This document shows positions 838-18,900 of a stretch of 64,000 bases of DNA, piece after piece; position 1 is the stretch's first letter, and each line of letters opens with the position of its first letter. Source of the DNA: Bacteroidota bacterium (GTDB lineage Bacteria; Bacteroidota; Bacteroidia; Chitinophagales; Saprospiraceae); contig JAIUPL010000013.1 in the NCBI GenBank assembly GCA_020160935.1, positions 47,710-111,709 on the forward strand, in the 5' to 3' direction. Under the pieces are notes generated by a model that was given only the letters and a program-made list of their open reading frames with translations, did no database searches and had not been told where the DNA came from. A program made the position numbers and the translations under genes.

Positions 838-2301
838 ATGCTCCAACCCGAACTCAAATCTCAAATAGACCGCGTCTGGGAAGCCTTCTGGACCGGCGGA
901 CTGAGCAACCCCCTCACCGTTATCGAACAGATGACCTACCTGTTGTTCGTTCGCCGGCTCGATGAATTGCAAACCCTCAAGGAGCAAAAAGCCAACCTCC
1001 TGCACCAGCCCATTGAAGCGCCCATCTACCAGGACGCGGAATATCCCCTGCGCTGGAGCCGTTTCAAGGACAGCGACCCGGAAAATATGTTTCGCCTCTT
1101 CACCCGCGAAGGCGGCGTGTTCGATTTCCTGCGCAACAGCGGCCACCGCAGCGCTGCCTTCACTAAATACATGAAAGGCGCTACCTTCATGATTCCTACC
1201 CCGCGCCTGCTCTCGCAAGTGGTGGATATGCTGTCGAATATCGACATGGCCGACCGCGACACCAAAGGCGACGTGTACGAATACCTGCTCAGCAAAATAG
1301 CCACCGCAGGCCAGAACGGCCAGTTCCGCACGCCCCGCCACATCATCGGTATGATGGTGGATATGGTGCGGCCCACACCCGACGACATTATCTGCGACCC
1401 CAGCGCCGGCTCCTGCGGCTTCCTCATCGTGGCCGCCGAATACGTGCGCAGCCACTACGAAACGGAACTGTACGACGAAGCGCGCCGCGCCCATTTCCAC
1501 GACCGCATGTTCATGGGTATGGAATTCGACCCCACCATGATCCGTATCGGGGCCATGAACCTTCTCCTGCACGGCATCGAAAATCCGCAACTCCGCGACG
1601 TAGACGCCCTCAGCGAAGCCAATACCGATTTCACCCAAAAAGCATCGCTCATACTCGCCAACCCGCCCTTCAAAGGCAGCCTCGACCGCGAAGCCGTAGA
1701 TGGCAAAATACTGAGCGTGGTGGATGCCAAAAAGACCGAACTCCTGTTTCTGGGCCTTATCCTCAAAGGCTTGCAACTCGGCGGCCGCGCGGCCGTGATC
1801 GTGCCCGATGGCGTGCTGTTCGGCAGCAGCAAAGCCCACCTGCAAATACGCCGCGAACTCATAGAACGCCAAAAACTGCAAGCCGTCATCTCCATGCCCA
1901 GCGGCGTGTTCAAACCCTACGCCGGGGTGAGCACCGCCGTGCTGCTCTTTACCCGCACCGACAGCGGCGGCACCGACCAGGTGTGGTTCTACGACATGCA
2001 GGCCGACGGATACAGCCTCGACGACAAACGCCAGCCCATCGCAGCCAACGACATCCCCGATGTGGTGCATCGATACCTGCACCCCGACGCCGAACACGCC
2101 CGCAGCCGCACCGACCGCAGTTTTATGGTGCCCGTGCAAGACATCCGCGACAATAAATACGACCTCAGTATCAACCGATACAAGGAAGTGGTGTACGAAG
2201 AAAAAACCTACGCTTCTCCCGCCGATATCATCCGCGACATAGAAACCCTCGACGCCGAACGCGCCGCTTTGTTGAATGAATTAAAAAAGATGCTGGTATG
2301 A
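838..2301 (+). CDS. hsdM: type I restriction-modification system, DNA methyltransferase subunit M
   Basis: ATG 838 (an in-frame TTG at 796 is less likely). N-terminal HsdM-type helix LKSQIDRVWEAFWTGG...LLFVRRLDE, SAM motif DPSAGSCGF, catalytic motif ILANPPFKG, C-terminal YDLSINRYKE. The stop overlaps the hsdS start (ATGA 2298-2301). Confidence 0.93.
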   Translation: MLQPELKSQIDRVWEAFWTGGLSNPLTVIEQMTYLLFVRRLDELQTLKEQKANLLHQPIEAPIYQDAEYPLRWSRFKDSDPENMFRLFTREGGVFDFLRNSGHRSAAFTKYMKGATFMIPTPRLLSQVVDMLSNIDMADRDTKGDVYEYLLSKIATAGQNGQFRTPRHIIGMMVDMVRPTPDDIICDPSAGSCGFLIVAAEYVRSHYETELYDEARRAHFHDRMFMGMEFDPTMIRIGAMNLLLHGIENPQLRDVDALSEANTDFTQKASLILANPPFKGSLDREAVDGKILSVVDAKKTELLFLGLILKGLQLGGRAAVIVPDGVLFGSSKAHLQIRRELIERQKLQAVISMPSGVFKPYAGVSTAVLLFTRTDSGGTDQVWFYDMQADGYSLDDKRQPIAANDIPDVVHRYLHPDAEHARSRTDRSFMVPVQDIRDNKYDLSINRYKEVVYEEKTYASPADIIRDIETLDAERAALLNELKKMLV

Positions 2302-3494
2302 AATGGGAAATGGTGAAATTGGGGGAGGTAATAGAAAAGCCAATTTCTGGCGAATGGGGAGAAGGCGAAGGAGAAACATATGTACTTCGAACTACAAACT
2401 TTAGAAATGACGGGAGTCTAAATTTTGAAAATGTAGTTAGAAGGAATATTTCTGAAAAAAAAATTCGAGAAAAATCTCTAAAACCTGGTGATTGTATCAT
2501 CGAAAAATCTGGAGGTGGGCCAAGCCAACCGGTAGGGAGAGTTGTATATTTCGACAACCCGAATGGAATTTATCTGTGCAACAATTTTACTAGCATAGTA
2601 CGCCCTAAAGCAGATGTGTACCCCAAGTATTTATTCTGGTATCTCTTTAATAATCACCTGATTGGGAACACTTTATCATATCAAAATAAAACTACAGGGA
2701 TCATAAATTTACAACTGGAAAGATACGTTTCTGAATCCTACATCCCGCTCCCGCCCCTCGCCACCCAGCAGCGCATTGCCGACATCCTCGACAAAGCCGA
2801 CGCGCTGCGCCGAAAAGACCAGGCCCTGCTGCAGAAATATGATGAACTGGCGCAGGCGGTGTTTGTGGAGATGTTTGGGGATCCGGTGAAGAATGAGAAG
2901 GGGTGGGAGGTGAAATTTTTGAGAGATTGCTTTTCCTCAAAACCTAGAATTGGTACTATCAAGCCCGTGACTTCTGATGGTACGATTAAAGTTGTTAGAG
3001 TTAGTGAGATAGGAAAATTAAATATTAACTTAGAAAAATCAAAAAAGGTAATTATTGAAAAAAATGAGAAAGAAAGGTATTTACTCCAAGAAAACGACAT
3101 TGTACTAGCACGTGCAATTGGTAGTATTGACCATCTGGGGAAAGCATCTTTAGTTAAAAATTTAAAAGAAGATGTGGTTTTCGACTCACATGTTATGAGA
3201 TTGCAATTCAATCAAAAACTTCTTAATTCCTATTTTTTCTATACTTGGTTGCAATCACCGGGAGGCAGGAAAATATTTCTTGAAAATTCCAGTCAGACTG
3301 CTGTTCAGTTCAATATTAATGCAGAACAAATTTCGAGAATAAAAATTGCAGTACCACCAATCAATATCCAATGTAAGTTTGAAAAATCTATTTTAGATAT
3401 TTATCAACAAATCACATTTCTAAACCTCTCCCACTCCACCGCCCTCTTCCAATCCCTCCTCCAAAAAGCCTTTACGGGCGAACTGGTACCCTGA
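2298..3494 (+). CDS. hsdS: type I restriction-modification system, specificity subunit S
   Basis: Two variable halves, each followed by a conserved helical spacer: central PLPPLATQQRIADILDKADALRRKDQALLQKYDELAQAVFVEMFGDP and C-terminal STALFQSLLQKAFTGELV. Translationally coupled to hsdM. Confidence 0.9.
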   Translation: MKWEMVKLGEVIEKPISGEWGEGEGETYVLRTTNFRNDGSLNFENVVRRNISEKKIREKSLKPGDCIIEKSGGGPSQPVGRVVYFDNPNGIYLCNNFTSIVRPKADVYPKYLFWYLFNNHLIGNTLSYQNKTTGIINLQLERYVSESYIPLPPLATQQRIADILDKADALRRKDQALLQKYDELAQAVFVEMFGDPVKNEKGWEVKFLRDCFSSKPRIGTIKPVTSDGTIKVVRVSEIGKLNINLEKSKKVIIEKNEKERYLLQENDIVLARAIGSIDHLGKASLVKNLKEDVVFDSHVMRLQFNQKLLNSYFFYTWLQSPGGRKIFLENSSQTAVQFNINAEQISRIKIAVPPINIQCKFEKSILDIYQQITFLNLSHSTALFQSLLQKAFTGELVP

Positions 3495-3556
3495 GCCGGG
3501 CGGCGTGGATGCCAATGCCCAACACACACACCAGGAGGCATTGCAATTCCCTTTAG

Positions 3557-3690
3557 CAGCCTGCTGCCGCCATGCTGCGCTTGTCACCCTGGCGGGGCCC
3601 GTTCACCCTACGAGGGCAATTCGCTGATACGCGCCGTAGGGTGAACGGGCCCCGCCAGGGTGACAAGGGCGGCATGGCGGCAGCAGGCTG
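3557..3690. repeat. long near-perfect palindrome (56-nt arms, 22-nt loop)
   Basis: Arm 3557-3612 (cagcctgctgccgccatgctgcgcttgtcaccctggcggggcccgttcaccctacg) is the reverse complement of 3635-3690 with 2 mismatches by hand alignment. Confidence 0.9.
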
Positions 3691-3694
3691 CGAA

Positions 3695-3799
3695 TATGGC
3701 GTTTGAAGAGGATTGGATTGCGTTCGAACAGGATCAGATTGCGTTCGAACAGGGCTGGATTGCATACTAACAGGTTCAGATTGCGTTCGAACAGGGCAA
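3695..3799. repeat. 21-bp tandem repeat, 5 units (core GATTGCGTTCGAACAGG)
   Basis: Units start at 3695 (degenerate), 3716, 3737, 3758 (degenerate) and 3779, an exact 21-nt period. Each unit contains the TTCGAA palindrome. Confidence 0.85.
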
Positions 3800-3870
3800 A
3801 GAAGGACGGCAGGGGGAGTGTTCGGCAGTGTTTAGAAAAGTGTGTCACTTAGGCTTTTTGTGTTTTTTTG

Positions 3871-4047
3871 GCAGCCTATAGACGCCATGCCGCCTTGTCG
3901 TCCTGGCGGGACCCGTTCACTCTACGGCGCGTAGACAGCAAATTTCCCTCGTAGAGCGGACGGGCCCCGCCAGGGTGACAAGCGCGGCATGGCGGCAGCA
4001 GGCTGCGAATATGGCGTTCGAACAGGATTGGATGGCGTTCGAACACA
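3871..4047. repeat. second, more degenerate copy of the palindrome plus 21-bp-repeat composite
   Basis: Arms 3871-3926 and 3950-4006 resemble the 3557-3690 palindrome. They are followed by the same gcgaatatggcgtt junction and two 21-bp units starting at 4010 and 4031. Confidence 0.75.
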
Positions 4048-4055
4048 CTCATAGC

Positions 4056-4128
4056 CCGTCGGGACAGCGCCTTTCAAGGCGCGCACCACAAAATAATTCA
4101 TGCGCCTTGAAAGGCGCTGTCCCGACGG
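4056..4128. repeat. perfect 27-bp-stem hairpin (19-nt loop)
   Basis: ccgtcgggacagcgcctttcaaggcgc (4056-4082) is exactly complementary to gcgccttgaaaggcgctgtcccgacgg (4102-4128). Confidence 0.9.
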
Positions 4129-4212
4129 ACTAAAGTCCATGCTACCACCACGCACAAACTTTTGATTTGCAATAAAATAAGCCGTGTTTTTTCACGGGAA
4201 TCATTTCAAAAC

Positions 4213-4220
4213 TATATTTG
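4213..4220 (+). promoter_or_regulatory. candidate Bacteroidota -7 promoter box (TATATTTG) ahead of the ABC ATPase gene
   Basis: Exact match to the TAnnTTTG consensus, 40 nt upstream of ATG 4260. There is no clean -33 TTTG. Confidence 0.3.
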
Positions 4221-4259
4221 CTTTTTTCTAATGGGGTGTGCGGCGCCCGGCATCGGAAC

Positions 4260-5525
4260 ATGGACAAGCAGTTTTTCCTGGAATTTCAGCAAAAGATCAA
4301 ACAGTTTACGGATCATGGCAATCTGGAAGATGCCACGATTCAGTTGATGGATTTTACGCGGGAGTTTTCGGCGCAGGCGCTGCGGCAACGGGAAGCCTTG
4401 TCGATCCGGCAGGATTTTGTGGGCATTCCGCCGCAGGGCCGGGTGTTGGGGGGGCATGAAGCCTACAAGGCGGTGCGGGAACAACTGGTACTGCGGGTAT
4501 TCGACCTGCTGCGGGTGATAGAAGCCGATATGGAAGCGCCGCCGGAAGAAGAGGCGCAGCAGCAGCCAGGCGTCAGAAGTTTTGAGGAACACCTGTACCG
4601 GTCGCCGCAAGCAATGGAGGAAACGCCCAGGCCGATTGTCCGTGCGCACCACTTAGTGCAGCGTTTTGGGAAATTTACGCTGGAAGGCATCAACCTGACG
4701 TGTATGCCCGGCGAAATTCTGGCAGTGATCGGCGAAAACGGCTCGGGCAAAACGACCCTGCTCAATATGCTGGCCGGGGAGTGGGCGCCATCGGAAGGGC
4801 GGGTGGAATACGGTTTTACGGAGTCGGAAAACTGGTATGTGCGGAAACAGGGGATTGGGTATTTGAGCCAGGAGCCGCGTACTGCACCCAAAAAAACGCT
4901 GTTGGAGTACCTCAAATTTCTGGCAGCCATTCACGGACATCCGATAGAGTCAGCACAGCGTTTTATATATCGTTTTCGGCTCGAAGAATACAAGGATGCG
5001 ACAGTGGAAGAAATATCCGGCGGATACAAAACCCGGTTTGAACTGGCCTGTGTTTTGATCCGGGAGCCGCAATTGCTGGTCCTGGACGAGCCACTGGCGC
5101 ACCTCGACATCAACAGCCAGCAGATATTGCTAAAAGACCTGCGCGATTTTGCCCGTTCGCAGAAACGCCCGATCAGTATTGTGGTCAGTTCGCAGCACGT
5201 ACACGAAATTGAAAGCCTGGCAGACAAGATACTGTTTCTGGAGCAAGGGAAAGTGGTGTATTACGGCCCAAAAGTGAGTATCAATACAGACAGAACGTTC
5301 CATACATTTGAAGTGGAATGCGGCTGTGATATTGTAACTTCGATACAATTGATGAAGGTTTTACATCCCGGGATCGATGTGACACAATGGGGAACTTACA
5401 TGGTCATCCGTACACCCGTGGAAGTCGGCTTCATGGACGTACTGAATGTCTTTTATTTGAATAATATTTCGGTGATGTATTTCAGGAATGTATCGAGTTC
5501 CACCAGAATGCATTTTTACAGGTAA
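4260..5525 (+). CDS. ABC-type ATPase with a ~140-aa helical N-terminal extension
   Basis: Walker A GENGSGKTT, Q-loop YLSQEP, signature ISGGYKTR, Walker B LLVLDEPLAHLD, H-loop region SSQHVHE. The C-terminal ~100 aa resemble the tail of ABC-2-type exporter ATPases. ATG 4260 is preferred over TTG 4218, which overlaps the -7 box. Confidence 0.85.
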   Translation: MDKQFFLEFQQKIKQFTDHGNLEDATIQLMDFTREFSAQALRQREALSIRQDFVGIPPQGRVLGGHEAYKAVREQLVLRVFDLLRVIEADMEAPPEEEAQQQPGVRSFEEHLYRSPQAMEETPRPIVRAHHLVQRFGKFTLEGINLTCMPGEILAVIGENGSGKTTLLNMLAGEWAPSEGRVEYGFTESENWYVRKQGIGYLSQEPRTAPKKTLLEYLKFLAAIHGHPIESAQRFIYRFRLEEYKDATVEEISGGYKTRFELACVLIREPQLLVLDEPLAHLDINSQQILLKDLRDFARSQKRPISIVVSSQHVHEIESLADKILFLEQGKVVYYGPKVSINTDRTFHTFEVECGCDIVTSIQLMKVLHPGIDVTQWGTYMVIRTPVEVGFMDVLNVFYLNNISVMYFRNVSSSTRMHFYR

Positions 5526-5527
5526 AT

Positions 5528-6670
5528 ATGAATAAGAGAAACGGTAAGATAGACATATGGCTTGAGCGGCTCAACAAACCATTATTGAGCAAATCTCCAT
5601 TTTTGTGGGTGCAGAATTATCCGCGCATCATATATGTATGGACATTACTTGTATTTATTGTTGTTTTGATGCTTCCGCTCCCCACCGAACAGCCCGGAAC
5701 GAATGCATTTTACTTTCAGGTGCTGGTACCATTTCTTCCATTGATAGTCATCTGGTGGGATATTGCGCGGGAGTATTCAAAAACAGACATAGTTGACTAC
5801 TATCAAAACAAGGGGTTATTCGACCTGAGAGAAGAGAAAAAGGTATTACATATCAATCTGGCACTTGTTTCCATTCCGCTATTGCTGTGTTTAATTAACC
5901 TTGATCATCGTTATCACGGCAAACAGTTCCCTACAAGCAGCGAGTATAACCAGCAGAGGCTTTACGATTATGTAAAAGGGGAATATTACTTTTTACAGCA
6001 ACAGGGCATAGGGCCGGAAAAGAGTATGGCTATTTTCAGGGATTCTGTTTATCCTTTCTTGTATTACCGTGATTTTCCGTCGTTTGATTCGGCGGCATTG
6101 GGGCGCTGTTTCAAAGATGTTGCAGCAACAGATGCAAGCCTTTTGCTAACGAATTATTACTGTGCCCTGAATGATCCATTTATCAGGTTTGATGGCGCCT
6201 TAAATGCCAAGAGATACTCCTATGCCCAGGCCGTGGAATATTTGAATGATCATATTGTACCAGAGCATCTTGTGGGAGTATTCCACTTTTGGTTTTTTGT
6301 AGCCATTCACATTTGGTATTATGCGATTTGCAACCTGTATTTTAAAACCCTGCTTAAATGGTATAGGAAACATCCATTTCATAAAAACACGCAAATTTTA
6401 CTTAAAGCGATTGTTTTTATCATGCTGTTTTTCGGTTTGGCCGCAGTCATTTTAGACGAATTTTTTAAAGACTACAAGTATTTAATTGAAAGAGCAGGAG
6501 ACATAACTGGTCCTGTAATCTACACTTTTATAAAAATCTTCAATGTCATTTCCATACCCGTGTTTCTTTATTTCTACCTGAATAAATTTACTACCATAAA
6601 ACTGGAACTGCTCGATCAAGTGTCCAGGCCGAAAGAACCTGTTGCAGCAAAAACACAATCCAACCCTTAA
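5528..6670 (+). CDS. multi-pass (about 6 TM) membrane protein, function unknown; coupled to the ABC ATPase
   Basis: ATG lies 2 nt after the ATPase stop. Hydrophobic helices: IIYVWTLLVFIVVLMLPL, FYFQVLVPFLPLIVIWW, LHINLALVSIPLLLCLINL, VGVFHFWFFVAIHIWYYAI, ILLKAIVFIMLFFGLAAVIL, VIYTFIKIFNVISIPVFLYFYL. A ~125-aa soluble insert separates TM3 and TM4. AT-rich. Confidence 0.75.
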   Translation: MNKRNGKIDIWLERLNKPLLSKSPFLWVQNYPRIIYVWTLLVFIVVLMLPLPTEQPGTNAFYFQVLVPFLPLIVIWWDIAREYSKTDIVDYYQNKGLFDLREEKKVLHINLALVSIPLLLCLINLDHRYHGKQFPTSSEYNQQRLYDYVKGEYYFLQQQGIGPEKSMAIFRDSVYPFLYYRDFPSFDSAALGRCFKDVAATDASLLLTNYYCALNDPFIRFDGALNAKRYSYAQAVEYLNDHIVPEHLVGVFHFWFFVAIHIWYYAICNLYFKTLLKWYRKHPFHKNTQILLKAIVFIMLFFGLAAVILDEFFKDYKYLIERAGDITGPVIYTFIKIFNVISIPVFLYFYLNKFTTIKLELLDQVSRPKEPVAAKTQSNP

Positions 6671-6675
6671 CTTTG
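6668..6675 (+). promoter_or_regulatory. candidate -7 box (TAACTTTG) ahead of hsdR, overlapping the stop codon of the membrane-protein gene
   Basis: Matches TAnnTTTG, 39 nt upstream of ATG 6714. A TTG lies at 6642-6644. Confidence 0.25.
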
Positions 6676-6713
6676 TCCAGACTCCCCTACCCTGCACGCT
6701 ACCCAATCCAGCA

Positions 6714-9700
6714 ATGACGACCAATTTCTCCTATCTTCCCGAAGCATGGCAAGCGCTGGCCCGCACGGCCATCGAAGCCGAGCAACAGGTATATGCTGCG
6801 CCTATGTATGCGGCCATGCTGTGCCGCAAAAGCCTGGAGGAATGGATACGCTGGATATACGAACACGACGACGCGCTGGAAATGCCGCAAGACACCTCGC
6901 TCAATTCACTCCTGCACCAACAGGCTTTCAAGGAACTGGTAGCGCCAAGCCAGTTCGGCCAGATCAACCTCATCCGCAAAATCGGCAACAATGCGGTGCA
7001 TTCCAGTGTGCGCATCAAATCCGACGAAGCCCTGTATGCCGTCAAACTGCTGTACAACTTCACGGGCTGGGTAGTGCGGCTCTACGACGAGGCCGACCTC
7101 GTGGCGCCGCCCTTCAATACGGCCCTGGTGCCGCAGCCCGTTGCTGCCGACAAAAGCAAGGAAGAACTGCAAAAACTGGAAGCCGCCTACCTGCAATCGC
7201 AGGAAGCCTTGCAGCGCGTGCAGGCCGAACTCGATGCCATCAAAGCCGTCAAAGCCCGAAACCAGGCGTATGTGCCGCCGCCGCACGACCCCAATGAGGC
7301 CCTTACCCGACAATACTACATCGACGCGCTGCTGCGCGAAGCCGGTTGGGAGCCGGATGCGCCGCGTGTGCGGGAGTTCCCGGTGCAGGGCATGCCGACG
7401 GCACAGGGCGCCGACGGCACAGGCAGGGCCGATTACGTGCTCTGGGGCGACGACGGGCTGCCGCTCGCAGTGGTGGAAGCCAAACGCAGCCAGCACGACC
7501 CGCGCGTGGGCGCACACCAGGCCAAATTGTATGCCGATTGCCTGGAACGGGAATTCGGCCAGCGGCCCGTTGTTTTTTATTCCAATGGGTACGATACCTG
7601 GGTTTGGGACGACACCAGGTATCCGCCCCGCGCGGTGCAGGGGTTTTACACCCGCGACGAACTTCAGTCGCTCGTCCACCGCCGCTTCAGTCGACAGCCG
7701 CTGTCGACCGCGCCCATCAACGAGGCCATCACCGACCGATACTACCAGCAGGAAGCCATTCGGGCCGTCGGGGAAGCGCTGGAACAAAACCGCCGGGAAG
7801 TCCTGCTCGTCATGGCTACCGGAACCGGCAAAACGCGCGTAGCAGCCTCTATCATCGACGTGCTGAGCAAGGCAGGCTGGATAAAACGCGTGTTGTTTCT
7901 GGCCGACCGCAACGCGCTGATCCATCAGGCGAAAGTCAACCTGAACGAGTACCTCCCGCATTTACCCGCCATAGACCTGACAAAAGAAAAAGAAGACGAA
8001 AGCAGCCGCATCGTTTTTTCCACCTACCAGACCATCATCCACATGATCGATGGCGAATCGGAAGGTGGGCAGCGGAGTTACGGACCGGGGCATTTCGATC
8101 TGATTATTTTTGATGAAATACACCGAAGTGTGTACAACAAATACAAGTACATTTTCAGGTATTTCGACGGGATACGGCTGGGCCTTACCGCCACGCCCAG
8201 GGCCGAAGGCGACCGCGATACGTACGACCTGTTCGGCCTGGAGCCGCACAACCCGACCTATGCCTACGAACTGGAACAGGCTGTGAACGATGGCTTTCTG
8301 ACGCCGCCGACTGCCATTTCAGTGCCGGTGAAATTTCATCGACAGGGCATTCGTTACGCCGATCTGTCGGCAGAAGAGAAAAGGGCGTATGAAGAGCAGT
8401 TTGCCGACCCGATAACCGGGCAGTTTCCGGACGAGATAGATGCTGCGGCCCTCAACAAATGGCTGTTCAACGAAGATACCGTCGACAAGGTAATCGGCTA
8501 CCTTATGGAGCATGGCATCAAAGTGGAAGGCGGCGACAAATTAGGAAAAACCATCATTTTCGCCCGTTCGCACGAGCATGCCAAATTTATAGAAGGGCGT
8601 TTCAACAAGCAATATCCACAGTACGGCGGCCATTTTCTGAAAGTGATCGACTACCAGGAAGAATATAAGTACGACCTGCTGAATCAGTTTAAAAGCAGGG
8701 AAAAATTGCCGCAAATTGCCGTTTCAGTGGATATGCTCGATACGGGCATCGACGTGCCTGAAGTGGTCAATCTGTTGTTTTACAAGCCCGTACGCAGCAG
8801 CGCGAAGTACTGGCAGATGATCGGGCGGGGCACGCGCCTGTGCCCGGACCTGTTTGGCCCCGGCGACCACAAAAAGCGCTTTGTGATCTTTGATTTTTGT
8901 GAAAACTTCGAGTTTTTCGGCCAGCATCCGCAGGGTTTCAGCGGCAGCACCGGCAAATCATTGAGTCAGCGGATTTTCGAAACCCGCCTGAGGCTGGCGC
9001 AGGTATTGCAGGCAGAAACAGCGCCTGCTTTGCAGGAATACGCACAGCAACTGCTCGATCTGTTGATTGCTCAGACGCAGGCGCTCAACCGCGATAGTTT
9101 TATCGTGCGGCAGCACCTGCGCGTGGTAGAAAAATACAGTGATCCGCACCGTTGGAATGCGCTGGACGATCAGGATATGCGCGATATTTTTCGGGAAATC
9201 GCCCCCCTGGTGTCAGAAACCGGGCAGCATGAAATGGCCAAACGCTTTGATGCCATGATGTTCGACCTGCAATTGTTTTCACACGTAGGCGACAAGCGGC
9301 AGGCAGGCATTGTGAGGCAGGTGGCTGATATAGCAGGCCAACTGACCAAAAAAGGCTCCATCCCGGCCGTTGCGGAAAAGATGGATATGCTGCGCGGTGT
9401 TCATTCACAAGGCTGGGCTGCCGGGGCCGATGTTGTGGCTCTGGAGCGCATTCGACTCGACATGCGCGATCTGTTGCGATTTCTGGAGCCTTCGAGTCAG
9501 CCGCTGGTATATTCCACTTATTTAGATGCTTTTGAAAGCACTGCACAGGAACACACTTTATTGTACAAGGTGAACAACCTGGATGCGTACCGGCGCAAGG
9601 TGCAACAGTACATCCTCCAGCACGAACAGCACCTGGTGATTCATAAAATCAAAACGAACGTACCGATCACCCGCGCCGAACTGGCCGAACTGGAGCGGAT

Positions 9701-10049
9701 GTTGTTCGAACAGGGCGCCATCGGGACGCGGGAGGAGTTTGTACAGGCTTATGGAGATCAGCCGTTGGGTAAATTCATCAGAAGCATCATTGGTCTGGAT
9801 GCCAACGCGGCCAAAACGGCTTTTGCGGCGCTACTGCAAACGGGTCAGTTCAACAGTCGGCAAATCCGGTTTATCGACACGATCATCAATTCTTTTATTT
9901 CTCAGGGTATTGTGGAGCCGTCACGTTTGTTTGAGTCGCCGTTTACCGACCTGCATGCCCATGGATTGTCCGGTGTGTTTGATGCCTACACTTCCAGCAG
10001 GATTATTGAACTGGTAGAAAGCGTGAACAGGAATGCGGAGGTGGCGTAG
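6714..10049 (+). CDS. hsdR: type I restriction enzyme, endonuclease/helicase subunit R
   Basis: Nuclease-type motif ADYVLWGDDGLPLAVVEAKRS. SF2 helicase motifs LLVMATGTGKTR (I), DLIIFDEIHR (II), LGLTATP (III), QMIGRGTRL (VI). The helical N-terminus is DUF4145-like and the C-terminal region is typical of EcoEI-type R subunits. Confidence 0.93.
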   Translation: MTTNFSYLPEAWQALARTAIEAEQQVYAAPMYAAMLCRKSLEEWIRWIYEHDDALEMPQDTSLNSLLHQQAFKELVAPSQFGQINLIRKIGNNAVHSSVRIKSDEALYAVKLLYNFTGWVVRLYDEADLVAPPFNTALVPQPVAADKSKEELQKLEAAYLQSQEALQRVQAELDAIKAVKARNQAYVPPPHDPNEALTRQYYIDALLREAGWEPDAPRVREFPVQGMPTAQGADGTGRADYVLWGDDGLPLAVVEAKRSQHDPRVGAHQAKLYADCLEREFGQRPVVFYSNGYDTWVWDDTRYPPRAVQGFYTRDELQSLVHRRFSRQPLSTAPINEAITDRYYQQEAIRAVGEALEQNRREVLLVMATGTGKTRVAASIIDVLSKAGWIKRVLFLADRNALIHQAKVNLNEYLPHLPAIDLTKEKEDESSRIVFSTYQTIIHMIDGESEGGQRSYGPGHFDLIIFDEIHRSVYNKYKYIFRYFDGIRLGLTATPRAEGDRDTYDLFGLEPHNPTYAYELEQAVNDGFLTPPTAISVPVKFHRQGIRYADLSAEEKRAYEEQFADPITGQFPDEIDAAALNKWLFNEDTVDKVIGYLMEHGIKVEGGDKLGKTIIFARSHEHAKFIEGRFNKQYPQYGGHFLKVIDYQEEYKYDLLNQFKSREKLPQIAVSVDMLDTGIDVPEVVNLLFYKPVRSSAKYWQMIGRGTRLCPDLFGPGDHKKRFVIFDFCENFEFFGQHPQGFSGSTGKSLSQRIFETRLRLAQVLQAETAPALQEYAQQLLDLLIAQTQALNRDSFIVRQHLRVVEKYSDPHRWNALDDQDMRDIFREIAPLVSETGQHEMAKRFDAMMFDLQLFSHVGDKRQAGIVRQVADIAGQLTKKGSIPAVAEKMDMLRGVHSQGWAAGADVVALERIRLDMRDLLRFLEPSSQPLVYSTYLDAFESTAQEHTLLYKVNNLDAYRRKVQQYILQHEQHLVIHKIKTNVPITRAELAELERMLFEQGAIGTREEFVQAYGDQPLGKFIRSIIGLDANAAKTAFAALLQTGQFNSRQIRFIDTIINSFISQGIVEPSRLFESPFTDLHAHGLSGVFDAYTSSRIIELVESVNRNAEVA

Positions 10050-10084: not shown

Positions 10085-11983
10085 CTATCTTGTACTGTCT
10101 TTCGTTTCCAGGCTAAGCCTTATGGTATAGGCTGTCCAATCAGTCTGTTCCAGGTGTTGGCGTTTTGCATCGCTCCGTAAGTAAGGAAAATGAGCAGACA
10201 GACCTTTTTGAACAAAGGGTTCTGTATTTAATTCTCCTGTACAAATTACTACTTTTATATATTCATCCACGGCAGAAAGGTCTGGCAGATCGATACGCAG
10301 TGGGATGGTTCGGTACTGGTAATTTTCAAAAACATCGGTAGCCCAAACTTCTTGCCCTGGTTGCAATTCCTGTTTTGGAAGTAATGCATTACTAATCGCA
10401 AAATTACTGTCGAGGTATAACACCCCGATCCAGTATGGTTGTTGTCCCGTATTGCGAATTTTAAGTTGAAAGCCAGGTCTGGAGCCTCCCGGTGTGTAAC
10501 GGAAAAGGGCAATATCAGTCTGCCAGTCCACCAATTCGACAGGAGCATTGTCTGATTCGTTTCCCGGTTCGGTCACACGATACAATTCAATGGTAATGTC
10601 CGACTCCGGTATTCGGGTGTTGTGGTTTGACAGATTGAGCGTGTGCAGCCAGTTGGCTACTACTTCCAGTTTTTGAAGAAAAAATATGGCTGTTGTTGTA
10701 CCATACCCTTGTATGGGTTCAAAAAATGGCAGATCATGATGTGTTCTGCTCAAAAAGTATGTACCGTTTTTCGCGTGCACGAGACATTCTGCTTGCATAA
10801 CCATGCTACATAATTGAAACAGGTCAGAGCCACGGTTTTCTATTGCTGCTGTCAAAAAGGAAACCCCTTCGGAGTCGCTGCCGGAAGCAAATGCGATGTT
10901 GAGTTTGGGTTTGGCTCTCAGCCGGATTACGGCACCATAAGATCGTTTTGTATCATAGCCCTCCATGCCGCTTACGGCTGAATGATCTGCAAAAACGGTT
11001 TCAACGGTTACCAGGTGCTCGTCTTCCTGCAGTTGCAGCACTGTGGGGTTTCCCGGTTCGGAGGGCGGAATGCCATGCATTGCTCCTGCATGGAGTACCC
11101 AGCCAGCAGAGTGATCCCAGGATACCAGAAATGACGGGTGTTCGGACTCGATCTTACTAAACAAGAAACCCAGGTTTCGATCTTCCTGAAAAGTTGCATC
11201 CAGTTGTGGAGACTGTTGTCGGACTATATTCCGAATTCGTTGGCGAATGCGCTCCAACAGGTTATGATAGGAAATCGACGCGCCGGTATTTTCAAGCGCT
11301 TCTACGAGGCAATAAGTGAAAATCCCGCCCGGCTTGTCTACAATAGTTATTTCTTTGGCCAGTTCGGTATCACGTGCTGCTGCCAGGTGAACCCTACGTC
11401 CCATCGGCGGGCGCAAGGCGCCGTCTTTCATTTTTTTAAAATGGTCGATGCCCAATAATTCAGATGCCGGAACGGCCGGCCCAAACTCACGGATTAAACG
11501 AACCCCGGAGGCTGCATCATCGGCATGACGCATCCTACCCGAATGGCAACAATCCATGGTCGTAACAAAAGGCACATCAATATGCTTGGAAACGCTCCAG
11601 ATGAGGTAGGATAATTCTTTGTCCATAAGGTCATACCCATCGGGCTGCCGGCTGTCCCAGCAAACGATAGATTCCTGATAATGATCTGGTTCGAATTCCC
11701 AGAAGGCTTCCGGAGCAGCACACCGGGAGCCATGGCCGGAGAAATGAAACAAACACGCATCTCCAGCCTGTGCTTGCTGGAAATGATCGAAACCCTCGAT
11801 GATCGCCTGACGCCCGGCCGCCTCATTGGTCAATACGAGCGGATAAAAAACTACTCCCATACGAGTGCAGTACGTGTCCAGAAATTGATACATGCGCTCA
11901 ACATCATTTACACAACCGTTGAGGGCGTGTGCAGGATTGGGATACTGGTCGATGCCAACCAGCAGGGCATATAATGTAGGCAT
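10085..11983 (-). CDS. caspase-fold (peptidase C14-like) protein with a ~370-aa beta-rich C-terminal region
   Basis: N-terminus YALLVGIDQYPNPAHALNGCVNDV, catalytic His in FHFSGHGS, catalytic Cys in TMDCCHSGRM. The C-terminal part (QLKIRNTGQQPYWIGVLYLDSNFAIS) recalls the DUF4384-type domain often attached to caspases; this is recognition from memory. Confidence 0.85.
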   Translation of the reverse strand: MPTLYALLVGIDQYPNPAHALNGCVNDVERMYQFLDTYCTRMGVVFYPLVLTNEAAGRQAIIEGFDHFQQAQAGDACLFHFSGHGSRCAAPEAFWEFEPDHYQESIVCWDSRQPDGYDLMDKELSYLIWSVSKHIDVPFVTTMDCCHSGRMRHADDAASGVRLIREFGPAVPASELLGIDHFKKMKDGALRPPMGRRVHLAAARDTELAKEITIVDKPGGIFTYCLVEALENTGASISYHNLLERIRQRIRNIVRQQSPQLDATFQEDRNLGFLFSKIESEHPSFLVSWDHSAGWVLHAGAMHGIPPSEPGNPTVLQLQEDEHLVTVETVFADHSAVSGMEGYDTKRSYGAVIRLRAKPKLNIAFASGSDSEGVSFLTAAIENRGSDLFQLCSMVMQAECLVHAKNGTYFLSRTHHDLPFFEPIQGYGTTTAIFFLQKLEVVANWLHTLNLSNHNTRIPESDITIELYRVTEPGNESDNAPVELVDWQTDIALFRYTPGGSRPGFQLKIRNTGQQPYWIGVLYLDSNFAISNALLPKQELQPGQEVWATDVFENYQYRTIPLRIDLPDLSAVDEYIKVVICTGELNTEPFVQKGLSAHFPYLRSDAKRQHLEQTDWTAYTIRLSLETKDSTR

Positions 11984-13140: not shown

Positions 13141-15975
13141 ATGGCAAAGTCAATTCGTAATCAACTAACTGCACACTTTCCTGCTAGCCATGCCTTCCTC
13201 GTTGGGGTACAGGATTATAGGTATGTTGCGCCCTTACAGACACCAGTCAATGACATAAAAAGCCTGGCGGAAGTACTTCAAATAGAGGCGCATGGTTTCC
13301 ACGTGCATGAACTGTTGATCAACCCGGAAAAGGAGGCGCTTGAAACTTATTTCGAAACAACCATCCCTGGCATTGTCAAGGAAAACGATCGGGTACTGAT
13401 CTATTTTGCCGGCCACGGAATTGCCATAGACGAAGCGGGGCAAACAGAACCGAAAGGGTTTCTATTACCCGTCGATGCACGCAGGAGCGACGAACATTCC
13501 TTCACTTCCATGGCATTTCTCAATATGTGCCTGCAAAAACTCCCCTGCCGGCATTTACTCCTTTTGCTGGATTGTTGCTTTGCAGGTTCCTTTCAGTGGG
13601 CAGTGGATCAAACAAGAGGTTATGGAAGAGATTCATTCTTCAAGACTATTTATCGGCAACGCTATGAATATTTTCTTCAGGAACCCGCATGGCAGGCAAT
13701 TGCATCATCAGCGTATCATCAACGCGCTTTGGATGTTGCCATCGATTATGCACTCGGGCAACGAGAAAAGGTGGGAGGGGCTCTCAACTCTCCTTTTGCA
13801 GAAACCCTTGTCGTGGCACTCAGAGATGGCGCAGGTGACCGCAGTCCCTCAGACGGTTTGATGACGGTATCCGAAATTTTTGCTTACCTACAGGATCAAT
13901 TGGTTCAGTTTAGTCATCTTCATATTCAAAAGCCGGTATTCTTTCCATTGCGGAATCACAGGCAAGGGGAATTTATTTTTCTCAACCCAAAAGTAAAATT
14001 ACACCTGGCAGATTATTCAGACGACTACAATCCCTACAGGGGTTTAGAGTCTTATGAACACCATCATCGCAATCTTTTCTACGGTAGAGACCGAGTGATT
14101 GAAGATTTAATGGAAGTATTAAACTACAATTCCCTGCTGATTGTCAGCGGTGATTCAGGCGCAGGCAAATCCTCTCTGGTCAGAGCCGGATTGATGCCAG
14201 AATTGGAACTGAGGGGATATCGCTTGCTCCATCCGATTCGCCCTGGTATGCATCCACTTGAGTCACTTGAAACTGCTGTGAAGGAGGCATCGGATAAACC
14301 CAGCGATCTTCCTTCTATTTTACTGGTCGATCAATTAGAAGAACTTGCGTCATCTTATGTTCAGGGTACAGAACGCACAGCATTTTTATCTTTTTTATCT
14401 TCTGAACTGGAACAACAAAGGTTTTTTCAAAAAATCATATTAACGGTTCGTTCCGACTTCGAGACTTTTTTCGAACAGTCGCCACTATCCCCCTACTGGA
14501 ACCGGACAGCCCGTTATCCCATACCCGGCTTTGAGTATGCTGAGTTGGAAGACATCGTATTATGCCCCATGCAAGAGCGATGTATCACATATGAAAAAGA
14601 CCTGACAGCACAGTTGATTCGGGAGGTTCAGAACAAGATCGGTGGATTGCCCTTGCTGTCATTTGCATTATTCGAATTATATGAGTGTTTTAAAGGGAGA
14701 AGGTTGAATGATGAGCACTTTCGTACCATTACGTGGAAAGATTATCAATCCACAGGTGGCGTAGTAGGTGCCCTGGAAAAACGCGCTGACCACATTTACG
14801 AACGTTTCGATGATATACACCGATCCGTTTTCAGGAAAGTCATACTCCGATTGGTGTCCAACGAGAACAGGGAATCTGGAAGACGAGTCCTGGCAGATGA
14901 AATAACCTATCGAAACTCTGAGGAAAATCAATGTGTTTCGCTTATTCTGGAAAGCCTCATTGATGCCCGCCTGCTGGTTACCGGCACCGACTACAGAGGC
15001 GATCGATTTATAGAACCCGCACATGATGCGCTGATACGTAGCTGGAACAGGTTGCGGTTGTGGATTGATGAGTTCAAGGATTACCTTCCATTACGGGATC
15101 AATTGATCGCCAAACTTACGGATTACCGGCAAAGCGGAGGGAAAGAAACCCTCCTGATGCACAACGATCCCAGGCTGGCGCAATTGGAAGACGTTCGAAA
15201 TAGACCGCAATGTTGGTACAATGCCCAAGAGGACGAATATGTACTTCAGAGTATTGCATGGAGGGAGAAGAAAAAGCGGGAGAACCGCAGAATTAGAGCC
15301 TATGTCTTCAGCGGGTTATCTTTTCTGTTATTACTGGCTTGTCTGTTTGGAATACAAAGTTTTATTGCCAATCAGGATTTGAAGGTTAAACAGATTTCTT
15401 TACAGCATGCCAACACTACCATTTTGAATCAACGCGACAGTCTGATACGGCGCGAATATGAAAACAACATCGCCAAAGGCCTGGAAGCGCAAAGCCAAAA
15501 GCGTTTTGTCGATGCGCTCAGTTCATTTCAGGAAGCAATCCAAAGGTGCCAAAACGACTCACTACTACTCGATAGTTTGCCCATAGCCCTTTCCTGTAGA
15601 AGCAGATGTCAGAAGTTGGCAGCAGACGACACCCGCTTTCAGGAATTATCGACCCAGGCAGAATCTTTGATAGCAAAAAACGATGATCGGGATCTGGGAA
15701 CTATTATCGAAATATACCGACAAAGCCTGCAGAAAGAAGTGGATGCCAGTTCAAAGGCAGTAATTGTAGAAAAAATCAGACAACTGGAAACCAGAAGGGA
15801 CCAGGCGTTCACCAAGACGATGGATATCGCTGCCGGAAGGGTACGAATCAACGAACCTTGCAGCGCTTTTTTCCTCTATCAGAAAGCGAATCAGATCAAA
15901 CCCGGGCAATCGGAAGCACTTCAAAAAATGCACGAATTAAAGAGTATGGCATTGAATTGCAAGGAACTTAAATAA
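13141..15975 (+). CDS. caspase-fold protease fused to a STAND P-loop NTPase, one TM helix and a helical/TPR-like tail
   Basis: Caspase dyad YFAGHGI / LLLLDCCFAGSF. STAND preamble NPYRGLESYEHHHRNLFYGRDR, Walker A SGDSGAGKSSLVRAGL, Walker B ILLVDQLEEL (nSTAND1-like pattern). TM AYVFSGLSFLLLLACLFGIQSFI near nt 15296-15366, then ~200 helical aa. Confidence 0.88.
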   Translation: MAKSIRNQLTAHFPASHAFLVGVQDYRYVAPLQTPVNDIKSLAEVLQIEAHGFHVHELLINPEKEALETYFETTIPGIVKENDRVLIYFAGHGIAIDEAGQTEPKGFLLPVDARRSDEHSFTSMAFLNMCLQKLPCRHLLLLLDCCFAGSFQWAVDQTRGYGRDSFFKTIYRQRYEYFLQEPAWQAIASSAYHQRALDVAIDYALGQREKVGGALNSPFAETLVVALRDGAGDRSPSDGLMTVSEIFAYLQDQLVQFSHLHIQKPVFFPLRNHRQGEFIFLNPKVKLHLADYSDDYNPYRGLESYEHHHRNLFYGRDRVIEDLMEVLNYNSLLIVSGDSGAGKSSLVRAGLMPELELRGYRLLHPIRPGMHPLESLETAVKEASDKPSDLPSILLVDQLEELASSYVQGTERTAFLSFLSSELEQQRFFQKIILTVRSDFETFFEQSPLSPYWNRTARYPIPGFEYAELEDIVLCPMQERCITYEKDLTAQLIREVQNKIGGLPLLSFALFELYECFKGRRLNDEHFRTITWKDYQSTGGVVGALEKRADHIYERFDDIHRSVFRKVILRLVSNENRESGRRVLADEITYRNSEENQCVSLILESLIDARLLVTGTDYRGDRFIEPAHDALIRSWNRLRLWIDEFKDYLPLRDQLIAKLTDYRQSGGKETLLMHNDPRLAQLEDVRNRPQCWYNAQEDEYVLQSIAWREKKKRENRRIRAYVFSGLSFLLLLACLFGIQSFIANQDLKVKQISLQHANTTILNQRDSLIRREYENNIAKGLEAQSQKRFVDALSSFQEAIQRCQNDSLLLDSLPIALSCRSRCQKLAADDTRFQELSTQAESLIAKNDDRDLGTIIEIYRQSLQKEVDASSKAVIVEKIRQLETRRDQAFTKTMDIAAGRVRINEPCSAFFLYQKANQIKPGQSEALQKMHELKSMALNCKELK

Positions 15976-15989
15976 CCCATTTATCTGAC

Positions 15990-18900
15990 ATGAAAACAAT
16001 TTGTATTGCCCTTTGCCTCCTGTCCGTAATGTCCGGCGGAAACGTATTGCACGCCCAATGTGCAGAACCCCAGAATAATAACGATGTCTGTTTCAGCCTG
16101 TGTGGCCCCGATAACGAGCCATGCATGTGCCGGTGCATTATGAAACGGGCTTACACACTTCTGGCAAAAGATTCGGTATACGTTGCTTTCAGCCTGTTTG
16201 CTCATGTAGCCGCAGCATGTAATGACCTCAGGGCAGCCGCTGTCATGGACAGCATGGTTCAAAACGTACGAGCCTGGAAATATAACGGCAATAGATATGC
16301 TATTTCAACAATTGAAGGGCGCGAAATCACCCCTTACATCTATACCAATCCAGCCAAGTTTATGTATGGCTATGCAATTGTTGAAGAAGACGGTCGATAT
16401 TATATTGTAGATAAAAACGGGAAAAAAATAAATGCTTCGGAGGCATATAAGAGCATTTTACCTATGGAACATGGCGCTTACTGGCTTACACCTCTGAACA
16501 ACGACGCAAACAGGGAAACGGACAAAATTGCACCGGCCAAGAATCCTTCGAAGATTATTTATAGCCCGAGTCTGGATCAGGCATTTGCAGGTCCGGAAGA
16601 AATGGCGGTATTTACGGACATGATTGCCGACAGTAAGTATGATACCATTTTCGGGCCGTACAATGGTACTGTGATCACCCGATATAAAGGCAAATACGGT
16701 ATTATCGATAAAAAAGGAAAGGAAATTAGCCCACCCAGATACGATGCGGTCGGTGGAGTATTTGATAACAGGCGATCGTGCATGGAAGGAAAAAAATTCG
16801 GGTTTCTGAAAGGAAATGGTTTGCCAGCCATAAAAATGTCATATGATACCGTATTGAATTTCAGCAATGCCCTGGCAGCAGTGCGTAAAGACGGGCTTTG
16901 GACTTACATCGACACCTCCGGAAGGCAAAAAATCACGGAAGTATTTGAAGCAGCGGATTATTTTATATATGGTTTTGCTTGGGTAAAGAAAAACGGCAAA
17001 TGGGGTATGATCAATACAGATGGCGTTTTTGTCGTACCGGCGAAATATGACAATTATCAGCCATGGTTTTATGGCCATTTGGGAGGGAGCATTTCCGACA
17101 GAGCCACTGTAAAAGACTCCACATTCAGCCTTTTCAGGTGGAGAGACAAAGTTGTAACTGTGGAAGGAAATGAAGTTTTTGAATTCCGGGATGGAATTGC
17201 TCTGGTGGCTACGGTAATTGGGTCTTTTTATGAAAATGGCAATCAATATTATTTTATCGATACAACCGGAAAAAGGCTTTTCGGAAAAGTATTCGACGAG
17301 GCGGTTAGTTTCAGTGAAGGCAAGGCTGCCGTATTTATCAACAACGAATGGATGTATATCAATACCAAAGGCGAACCTCTTTTTAAATTAAAACTTGATA
17401 AAAATGGTATTGAACTTGCTATTGCGGGTGAGTTTCATGATAATCGGGTACAAATAAAGCATCATTTACAGTCTACCTTTTTAGACGAGAACGGGGAAAC
17501 AATTATCCCATGGGTCTATTACCAAAACGATATTCGGCAGGGAGATCAAATTTGGATAAAAGAATCTACCCTTGATACTCCCTTCTGGCGATTGTACGAT
17601 TTAAATAGTGGCAAACTGATAATCGATGAAAAATATCAGGAAATAATGCGTGAAAGTGAAGGCTTGACCTGGGTAAAAAGGGACAACAAATGGGGCATCC
17701 TAAATCGACAGGGAGTAGAAGTACTGGAACCAACGTATGACATGCCATTCTATGGTAATTATGACAATTATGACTATTCATTCAAAGGTAGCCTGGCGCT
17801 TGCGCAGGCAGGAAGCGAATGGTGGTTTATTGACCCAGAGGGGAATTCCGTGCTCTCGCAATTATTTAAAATCAACATTGATTCGCCAAGGAACGATAGT
17901 GTAATCCCTTACAATGAAAACGGACTTTACGGATTTAAAAATGGTTACGGGAAGTGGTTGATAAAGCCATCCTTCCACTACCTCGATTTTACTCGCTTCA
18001 ACGATCGGGAACTCGGCATTACGGTTGTTGTAGATAGATTGGGAAAAGTTGGCATCGTTGATTCGCGAGGGCAACTCATCGTAGAACCCAGTTTCAAACA
18101 AATCGGCGATTTCAGGGAGGGTATTGCCATTGTCATCAGCCCGGAAGGGAAGCATGGATACATCCGTTTAGACGGCTCTGTTTTGGTAAACCCGCAATAT
18201 GCATCTGCCACCGATTTCAGCAATGGAGTGGCCTGGGTTTCAGATTTCAACAACAGATGGGCCTTGATAGAAAGTGCTTCAGGAAAAAGAATAACAGAGT
18301 GGAATGAGTATGAATTTGCTCTTGCTTTTAGCGACAGTGTTTCCATCATCCGCGTAAAATACAACTGGAGAATAACGGACCGTAAAGGGAAGATTATGCC
18401 AACCTTACCACTTGACTACGATCAAATACAAGCGTTCAGTGATGGTTATGCAGCAGTCTTGAAAAACGGTCGATGGGGATACATCAACAAACAGGGCGAA
18501 CTGGTTATACCGTGGCAATTTGATGATGCATCTGATTTCAAGGAAGGTATTGCAGTAGTTAAAACATCCTCAAGTCAATTCCGCTTCCTCTGCAAAAACG
18601 GAAAATTTCTTACACAGGTGTCTTATTCTTATGCTACGCCCTTTTTTAAGGGCTATGCAGTCGCTGCTATTACAGAGGCGAATTACGATAAGAAGTTCGG
18701 TATGATTGACCGAAACGGCAAGACTGTCTTTGATTTCATTTATGACAAGATAGAGTTTGTGGGTGATTACATTCTGACTACTGCCGGCTCTAAATGGTCC
18801 ATTTACGATTGTAATCTAAAGGAACTTATTTTACCCGTCATCGACCATTTCATGCCGATTGGGAAAGACATGGTACTCTTAGGATCAAAAGGTAAAATGG

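Follow-up and report, generated by a model that had tools for sequence, protein, structure and literature searches.

The established precedent for a further gene nested in a type I restriction-modification (R-M) locus is PrrC/EcoprrI. PrrC is an anticodon nuclease, a soluble protein that carries its nuclease at the C-terminus and has neither a membrane partner nor an effector-associated domain (EAD). The ABC ATPases of PARIS, Gabija, Septu and PrrC are soluble and belong to clades acting on nucleic acids, and to our knowledge few bacterial immune sensors are located at the cell envelope. Here we examine a two-gene cassette, an ABC ATPase gene (gene 1) coupled to a membrane protein gene (gene 2), which separates hsdS from hsdR in a type I R-M operon, within a 64,000-nucleotide stretch (the window) of contig JAIUPL010000013.1 from a Bacteroidota metagenome-assembled genome. 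On balance, we think that the cassette is probably the constant core of an undescribed conflict system coupled through the domain EAD11, carried as cargo in the hsdS-hsdR slot, rather than a transporter.

Kaur et al. 2020 formulated an 'EAD principle', in which a common adaptor joins variable effectors to an NTPase core that stays constant (PMC7159879); homotypic EAD recruitment is a proposal from comparative genomics (PMC7159879; PMC8195603). The two accounts (Kaur et al. 2020/2021) cover ten EADs without EAD11, and 'ABC' occurs in them zero times (PMC7159879; PMC8195603). EAD11 was likewise absent from the relevant literature that we found. Like these EAD-coupled NTPase systems (PMC7159879; PMC8195603), the cassette has a small helical EAD at the terminus of its NTPase core component, and in relatives of the family the same domain is found on TIR, caspase-like, trypsin or FHA proteins next door, with Cyanobacteria well represented. 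Unlike them, its core is an ABC-2 ATPase with a partner of six transmembrane (TM) helices, not MoxR-vWA-VMAP/iSTAND, a GAP1 GTPase or STAND, and the window copy has no second EAD11 gene within the 64 kb, whereas a second copy is present in the related loci L003, L006, L090, L095, L097 and L099 and in a JGI contig. Pfam already lists the EAD11 domain, and the adaptor principle has been published; what appears to be new is an ABC-transporter-type core with a membrane partner, of which the hsd-nested, effector-less form is a further variant.

The cassette shares with NosFY, PmtCD, ABCA1/3/4/7 and TM_1403 the fold of the nucleotide-binding domain (NBD) and C-terminal domain (gene 1) and six TM helices (gene 2). 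Unlike these ABC-2/type V systems, it has an extra N-terminal EAD11 and linker, an insert between TM3 and TM4, effector genes near its relatives, and a membrane protein with neither a permease sequence match nor a confident fold match. Like PrrC, it places an ABC-type NTPase gene as cargo between hsd genes; unlike PrrC, gene 1 has no nuclease domain, and no sequence kinship past the P-loop was seen. The analogy with PrrC that an earlier note on this DNA had drawn holds for the position and for nothing beyond it.

ABC-fold ATPases also occur in a defence context in AriA/PARIS, GajA, PtuA and MADS mad3/mad8 (PADLOC). The defence ABC ATPases in PADLOC are soluble, whereas gene 1 has a membrane partner, and the AriA, GajA and PtuA matches to gene 1 reach 13-23 bits, mainly in the Walker A region (for some GajA matches, over a short Walker B-side stretch). 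Against PADLOC-DB 2.0, gene 1 gave generic P-loop/ABC matches only and gene 2 gave none. Identification of gene 1 as mad3 (82 bits) was rejected: the match is weaker than generic transporter matches and is not specific, because HHpred PDB alignments were the source of the MADS hidden Markov models (HMMs). Neither PADLOC nor the literature searched contained an ABC-transporter-type core that has its own membrane partner, in keeping with the earlier view that this is a module of a kind not described; a mention in the ABC-ATPase classification of Krishnan et al. 2020 is possible.

An ABC ATPase with an EAD11-like adaptor

The cassette and its domains are as follows (amino acids, aa; AlphaFold2, AF2).

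4260..5525, + strand: gene 1, EAD11-ABC ATPase, 421 aa (GenBank MCA0237176.1, 'ABC transporter ATP-binding protein'; AF2 pLDDT 89.6)
4272..4538, + strand: N-terminal four-helix domain of gene 1 (aa 5-93), divergent EAD11 by profile evidence; helices 3-18, 22-36, 40-54 and 67-92 (AF2, pLDDT 83-94)
4638..5279, + strand: ABC nucleotide-binding domain of gene 1 (aa 127-340); PF00005, E 2e-28, 99.9 bits
5298..5519, + strand: C-terminal alpha/beta domain of gene 1 (aa 347-420), family-specific, ending in YFRNVSSSTRMHF (alignment; Foldseek)
5528..6670, + strand: gene 2, 380-aa membrane partner with six TM helices (GenBank hypothetical protein MCA0237177.1)
5918..6271, + strand: helical soluble insert of gene 2 (aa 131-248, ~118 aa) between TM3 and TM4 (AF2 pLDDT 76-91)

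The stop of gene 1 (5523-5525) is followed directly by the ATG of gene 2 at 5528, which stops at 6668-6670. We corrected the start of gene 1 to ATG 4260, because homologues align from that Met; the GenBank call of 435 aa uses TTG 4218. With this start, the TATATTTG box lies upstream of the gene. The AF2 model of gene 1 (29-sequence alignment; pLDDT 89.6, pTM 0.85) has four parts: an N-domain of four helices (aa 3-92), a linker predicted to be disordered (93-125), the NBD (127-340) and a C-terminal alpha/beta domain (347-420). The helical extension in front of the ABC core, which the earlier note had likened to effector-associated domains, is thus real in the model.

The identity of this extension was established through relatives of gene 1. 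In homologues at 32-42% identity, the Pfam EAD11 family (PF19964; gathering score 26 bits) scores above its gathering threshold, with P0006, P0008, P0016 and P0021 at 28-48 bits, and P0004 (42% identity to gene 1) gives a sub-threshold 18.3 bits. A local EAD11 HMM, made from the N-termini that pass the Pfam threshold, aligns with the window protein along the whole domain (E 7e-8, among 5636 open reading frames, ORFs) and also picks up effector-borne EAD11 outside its seed, at 2e-12 to 6e-9. An EAD11-like domain stands N-terminal to the NBD in 49/67 top homologues, compared with 0/54 generic ABC proteins. By hhalign, the window clade (the window protein, P0003, P0004 and L093) matches the Pfam-positive N-termini at 98.5% (E 3e-15) and effector-only EAD11 domains at 93% (E 3e-7, 81 columns). 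The EAD11 copies fall into two diverged subgroups, ATPase-borne and effector-borne; the relatives' ATPases and linked effectors exceed the PF19964 threshold, and profile-profile comparison shows the window domain to be homologous. By transitive HMM and profile-profile evidence, the N-terminal extension of gene 1 is a divergent EAD11 adaptor. By this evidence, which runs via Pfam-positive relatives, the 'effector-associated' interpretation was correct.

The ABC core is canonical, as originally described: PF00005 is matched, and Walker A, the Q-loop, the ABC signature, Walker B with its catalytic Glu, the D-loop and the H-loop are all in place (GENGSGKTT, SQEP, SGGYKTR, LLVLDEPLAHLD and, at the H-loop, SSQH), as are the invariant residues K164, Q204, S253-G255 and D276-E277 (Walker B). 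With all motifs kept and a confident AF2 model, gene 1 is predicted to be catalytically competent. Its C-terminus matched no nuclease family in Pfam or Foldseek.

A constant gene pair with variable effectors

To place the pair in its family, 43 genome loci were gathered with the family-specific C-terminal ATPase alignment. They are mostly from Bacteroidota, with Nostoc and Hydrocarboniphaga in addition, and counts of distinct loci set aside the duplicates L002 and L004. An ATPase ORF tightly coupled to a membrane ORF, whose topology class is shared throughout, is present in 40/45 distinct loci (41/46 with the window). The membrane gene starts within ~26 bp of the ATPase stop or overlaps it, with gaps of -50 to +26 bp in 37 loci, and the partner in the wider family has 2-3 TM helices, a 170-350-aa insert and then 4-5 TM helices. 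Across loci, conservation is limited to these two genes.

In six independent loci, all within the EAD11-positive clade, the third gene, directly after the membrane gene, encodes an EAD11 fusion.

Nostoc loci L003 and L006: third gene EAD11-CHAT
L090: third gene EAD11-TIR (TIR_2)
L097: third gene EAD11-TIR
JGI contig: third gene EAD11-Trypsin_2
L099: third gene EAD11 with an unknown domain

Further loci show other arrangements. In L095, whose membrane protein is one of the few relatives of gene 2, the stretch downstream of the pair (3693-6540) encodes a Ser/Thr kinase-TPR protein and, ~4 kb downstream, EAD11-FHA, which suggests a variant of the system with a phospho-signalling output. In Dyadobacter sp. 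SG02 (L016, 8142-9206), a Peptidase_C14 caspase lies upstream and overlaps the start of the family ATPase, and its C-terminal 80 aa are weakly EAD11-like (E 7e-4). In P0009 and P0063, the ATPase is itself part of a TIR-EAD11-ABC fusion. Pairs without an effector are frequent in Bacteroidota, and the close relatives P0004/P0123 and L093 retain both genes. Because the membrane protein is the constant partner whereas the EAD11-fused TIR, CHAT, trypsin and caspase proteins vary, the 'membrane effector' proposed in the earlier note is unlikely, and gene 2 is more likely a sensor/transducer or partner than an effector.

The membrane partner

Gene 2 shows five hydropathy peaks and, counted from AF2 helices, six TM segments, with an insert of ~118 aa; the AF2 count and the insert agree with the ~6 TM helices and soluble insert first reported. 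The insert is predicted to be extracytoplasmic, and the K/R-rich loops fit an N-in/C-in topology by the positive-inside rule. No ABC-2 permease motif had been seen in gene 2, and none emerged in Pfam, NCBIfam, partner-family or Foldseek searches. Gene 2 has no match of any kind in Pfam, NCBIfam or PADLOC, and the 10 larger membrane partners of the family have none in Pfam or NCBIfam either. On the possibility that the protein models as a standard permease, the Foldseek result is uninformative, because the AF2 model has a pLDDT of 62.6, being weak in the TM region, and nothing was found below E 2.5.

Relatives of gene 2 are rare. A full HMMER scan found just 5 among 1.84e9 representatives, a word-indexed search found the protein itself alone and a profile search found 2 proteins. 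All members of this small family (6/6) directly follow an ABC ATPase gene of the same ATPase family. Gene 2 and the large partner family have in common a cytoplasmic N-terminal motif (hhalign 93.6%, 32 columns) and a C-terminal 'LxxLxxP' end. Since the N-terminal motif alone aligns confidently, we grade the kinship as probable: gene 2 is probably a shortened, fast-evolving member of the wider partner class.

A candidate membrane-embedded core

If the cassette is an EAD11-coupled conflict core, gene 1 would serve as an active ABC-2/type V ATPase that holds its EAD11 adaptor on a flexible linker, and gene 2 as its cognate partner with six TM helices, the helical domain of which would probably face the periplasm. 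ABC transporters and mechanotransducers with NBDs of this class suggest, by analogy, that a pair of ATPases and a pair of membrane subunits may form an inner-membrane complex. A cue from the envelope or membrane would then act on its ATP-driven conformational cycle, and EAD11, on the cytoplasmic side, could recruit or release EAD11-tagged proteins, possibly by homotypic contact, and a defence phenotype would be expected. In relatives, the tagged proteins would be supplied by the third gene as EAD11-TIR, EAD11-CHAT, EAD11-trypsin, caspase or EAD11-FHA. At this locus, with no EAD11 partner encoded within 64 kb, the output may come from a partner whose gene lies in another part of the genome, from the membrane complex itself or, less likely, from HsdR.

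A more specific version is doubtful, although conceivable: the pair would be the core of membrane-embedded immune or cell-death switches that sense the envelope and deploy TIR, caspase-like or trypsin effectors through EAD11, and here hsdR would replace the effector and be wired to, or guarded by, the switch.

If the cassette is indeed such a core, a conflict system built on a transporter-type NBD and a membrane protein would be different in kind from the soluble defence ABC ATPases. It would also point to surveillance at the cell envelope, the site of phage adsorption and DNA entry, and the compact three-gene operons together with the effector-less pairs would give a handle on homotypic EAD recruitment.

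A number of results weigh against this assignment. The N-terminus of the window protein (aa 1-147) matches zero Pfam families at E <= 1 and has no EAD11 score of its own, and its match to an HMM made from effector copies alone is marginal (E 0.05). A cognate-pair signal is absent: in a 5x5 identity matrix, a test of low power at such divergence, all values are 13-24%, and adjacent ATPase and effector EAD11 copies are no closer than non-cognate copies. No second EAD11-bearing protein was found in the 64-kb window, where the next best ORF has an E of 1.4. The third position after the pair is taken by hsdR both in the window and in the related locus L001, and neither has an EAD11 effector. Global hhalign between gene 2 and the large partner family reaches 36%, and the jackhmmer link between them depends on database size, appearing in the small database only. 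The gene 1 NBD is a bona fide transporter-class NBD by NCBIfam, PDB sequence and Foldseek comparisons. A distant Bacteroidota subfamily (30-35% identity) sits beside gltX, pgk, rpiB, alaS, mreC and similar genes with no defence enrichment, the neighbours of closer Bacteroidota loci are a mixture (an HtrA-like protease, Omp85, GH9 and bpMoxR), and we found no experimental work on any family member in the literature.

The distant subfamily (L017-L048) comes from Chryseobacterium, Flavobacterium, Empedobacter, Ferruginibacter, Fluviicola and others. Its ATPase of ~380 aa has a shorter N-terminal helical extension, its partner has 480-640 aa and 8 TM helices, and neither belongs to a described family. 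This pair appears to be widely conserved in Bacteroidota beside housekeeping genes, and it would be unsafe to extend a defence role to every member of the family. Defence enrichment was also not found around the genome-derived family loci.

Comparison with ABC transporters

The alternative that survives best is that the cassette encodes an ordinary ABC-2-type transporter or mechanotransducer, for export or envelope maintenance, situated between hsd genes, in which the N-domain is a regulatory appendage of the NBD. The best NCBIfam profiles of gene 1 are DrrA, PQQ-ABC, RbbA, CcmA, NodI and GldA, all in line with this alternative; no curated NCBIfam transporter cut-off is reached, however, the score being ~100 bits against cut-offs of 130-1050. 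A PDB sequence search placed ABCA3/1/4 on top, and the top Foldseek matches were NosF, TM_1403, ABCA3/7/4/1 and PmtC (E ~2e-17, TM up to 0.77 on target). Defence ATPases of the SMC, Rad50 or OLD type are not among the close matches. NosF and TM_1403 align by Foldseek over the full length, which makes the C-terminal domain the equivalent of the regulatory domain of ABC-2-type NBDs, and the relative P0016 has a weak DrrA1-3_C match. Judged from sequence and model, gene 1 is a complete ABC-2/type V transporter-class ATPase with its regulatory domain.

A transporter would also suit a partner with six TM helices and a predicted N-in/C-in topology, the housekeeping surroundings of the distant subfamily, and the labels of GenBank and JGI, which call these ATPases ABC-2 transport ATPases. 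Yet the partner matches no permease family, EAD11-effector genes are adjacent in six loci with EAD11-FHA in one more, some of the ATPases are fused to TIR, and the insertion site is a defence-cargo slot. We therefore consider a plain transporter unlikely.

The hsdS-hsdR junction as a cargo slot

The host operon is complete, with hsdM, hsdS and hsdR all whole by Pfam and PADLOC.

838..2301, + strand: hsdM, type I methyltransferase (alternative upstream TTG start at 796; Pfam N6_Mtase, 3.5e-61, and HsdM_N; PADLOC MTase_I, 1e-179)
2298..3494, + strand: hsdS, specificity subunit (Methylase_S, two stretches; PADLOC Specificity_I, 2e-81)
6714..10049, + strand: hsdR, restriction subunit (N-terminal DUF4145, HSDR_N, ResIII, Helicase_C and EcoEI_R_C; PADLOC REase_I, 6e-181)

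The 487-aa form of hsdM is identical to GenBank MCA0237172.1, and hsdM and hsdS overlap by 4 nt (ATGA). We read hsdR from ATG 6714, 3219 bp past the hsdS stop; its first in-frame start is TTG 6642. The gap is filled by a repeat-rich 765-bp spacer and then by the two coupled genes (4260-5525 and 5528-6670). The coordinates thus bear out the layout given in the earlier note, namely hsdM-hsdS coupling, a 3.2-kb gap to hsdR, a repeat spacer and two coupled genes. The reported fall in base composition is also there: the GC content drops from 0.60 (4401-4800) to 0.34-0.41 (5201-6600), that is, over the second half of gene 1 and the whole of gene 2.

The edges of the variable stretch are sharp. DNA homology between the window and the hsdR relatives L101, L102 and L103 ends at ~3490, at the hsdS stop, and resumes at 6712, at the hsdR ATG, so that the hsdS stop is the left edge and the hsdR ATG the right edge of a variable cargo stretch. 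We collected 80 metagenomic hsdR relatives (L101-L180; 43-75% identity). Unrelated, mostly co-directional genes occupy 0.6-3.7 kb between hsdS and hsdR in 40/59 related loci. This cargo includes GmrSD, AbiEii with DUF6088, YhcG/DUF1016 nucleases, Schlafen-AlbA_2 with HATPase_c_4, Fic and AIPR, and further CAP12/Pycsar-type TIR, Mrr, HEPN_RiboL-PSP, DUF4411, Peptidase_M78/HTH and an IS200 transposase. The company is overwhelmingly one of immunity and toxin-antitoxin genes. Because the hsdS stop and the hsdR ATG are the points where homology breaks and because the relatives' junctions vary, we conclude that the interval 3495-6713 is exchangeable cargo in a hypervariable slot of this HsdR family. 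The cassette is indeed a self-contained module dropped into the operon, as had been suggested.

The junctions hold more than 50 cargo clusters, many of which have no Pfam family. Such clusters could hide new immunity genes, and the hsdS-hsdR junction of this one HsdR family is a rich cargo slot that can be mined for them.

Association with R-M, in contrast, is not a trait of the ATPase family, although the earlier note had taken the module to be R-M-associated. The ABC-membrane cassette occurs in 0/80 hsdR relatives, hsd genes lie near the pair in 0/43 genome loci, and among ~60 family loci only the window and L001/L002 are hsd-linked. These counts bear on a second alternative, a PrrC-like guard, in which the ATPase-membrane complex would monitor or be restrained by HsdMSR and act when restriction is blocked, or in which HsdR would take the place of the EAD11 effector. 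Several features speak for it: the hsdS-hsdR position is kept in two loci despite cassette divergence to 59% and 42%, hsdR occupies the exact slot of the EAD11 effector gene of L090, L097 and L099, the 3' end of the cassette contains a candidate promoter box for hsdR, and PrrC/EcoprrI is an established precedent. However, no other family locus is hsd-linked, the N-terminus of HsdR is the standard DUF4145 of the REase_I family (EAD11 E 4.8), and gene 1 lacks a nuclease domain. Moreover, since the slot holds many unrelated cargos, adjacency to hsd genes is expected without functional coupling. We regard a guard as quite improbable.

The effector-less form and its relative L001

No EAD11 was detected in HsdR (E 4.8) or in the neighbouring caspase (E 36). 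The locus L001 has the same effector-less arrangement: its hsdR is 79% identical to that of the window, its ATPase 59% and its membrane protein 42%, and all ORFs are intact. A third alternative, in which a three-gene system lost its effector on landing between the hsd genes and has since become functionless or begun to decay, is very improbable: the lack of an EAD11 partner in 64 kb, an EAD11 too divergent for Pfam, an atypically low GC content and a fast-diverging membrane gene would fit, but neither ORF is broken and every catalytic and family motif is kept, the arrangement persists in L001 at 59%/42% identity with no frameshifts, and effector-less pairs are common in Bacteroidota, where P0004/P0123 and L093 keep both genes.

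At the DNA level, similarity between the window and L001 is patchy: 80% at 4272-4370, undetectable over the linker (4371-4659) and 70% at 4660-5518, while gene 2 shows hardly any. Together with the GC shift from 0.60 to 0.41 within gene 1, this pattern may reflect a mosaic or recombinant history or strong diversifying pressure.

Spacer and promoter-like boxes

Between hsdS and gene 1 lie the spacer and the first of two promoter-like boxes.

3495..4259, no strand: repeat-filled spacer with hairpins and 21-nt tandem repeats
4213..4220, + strand: TATATTTG box, candidate Bacteroidota-type -7 element, 47 nt upstream of the gene 1 ATG
6668..6675, + strand: TAACTTTG box, candidate -7 element of an hsdR promoter; it overlaps the stop codon of gene 2 and lies 46 nt before the hsdR ATG

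The core of the spacer is made of two ~315-bp units, each a ~140-nt near-perfect hairpin followed by 21-nt tandem repeats. The hairpins at 3553-3694 and 3868-4009 have 60-nt arms that are 95% complementary, with an RNA fold of -142 kcal/mol (z = -18). The tandem repeats run at 3696-3797 with a further copy at 4011-4032, and a third, separate hairpin lies at 4052-4132. An Rfam scan of the spacer hairpins matched no family, and no further copy of the repeats was found elsewhere within the 64-kb window. In L001, positions 1-190, upstream of the homologous ABC gene, hold repeats with a 21-nt period, direct and inverted (51-nt arms, 84% complementary); the architecture is like that of the window and there is no sequence similarity.

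The TAnnTTTG boxes to which the earlier note had drawn attention are present at 47 and 46 nt before the two ATGs, and TTAACTTTG stands at an equal distance before hsdR in L001, where the surrounding sequence is otherwise unconserved. The motif is not enriched across the window, however, with 35 found against 41 expected, so that the promoter-box call for gene 1 is one of position only.

Neighbouring genes

Downstream of hsdR, three genes form a distinct group.

10085-11983, - strand: stand-alone 632-aa caspase (Peptidase_C14), directly after hsdR
13141-15975, + strand: caspase-nSTAND1 NTPase
15990-19148, + strand: WG-repeat protein

These genes, none of which has EAD11, are a STAND/caspase conflict cluster, and because of them we regard the locus as a conflict island. 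In L011, a protein homologous to the 632-aa protein outside its caspase part is encoded 9 kb from the ABC pair. Farther along, the window encodes several large secreted-type proteins. These include proteins with Tectonin repeats, with PKD/BNR and a T9SS sorting tail, and with Big_9/beta-helix, and a 3645-aa ORF extends over 40361-51298 (- strand).

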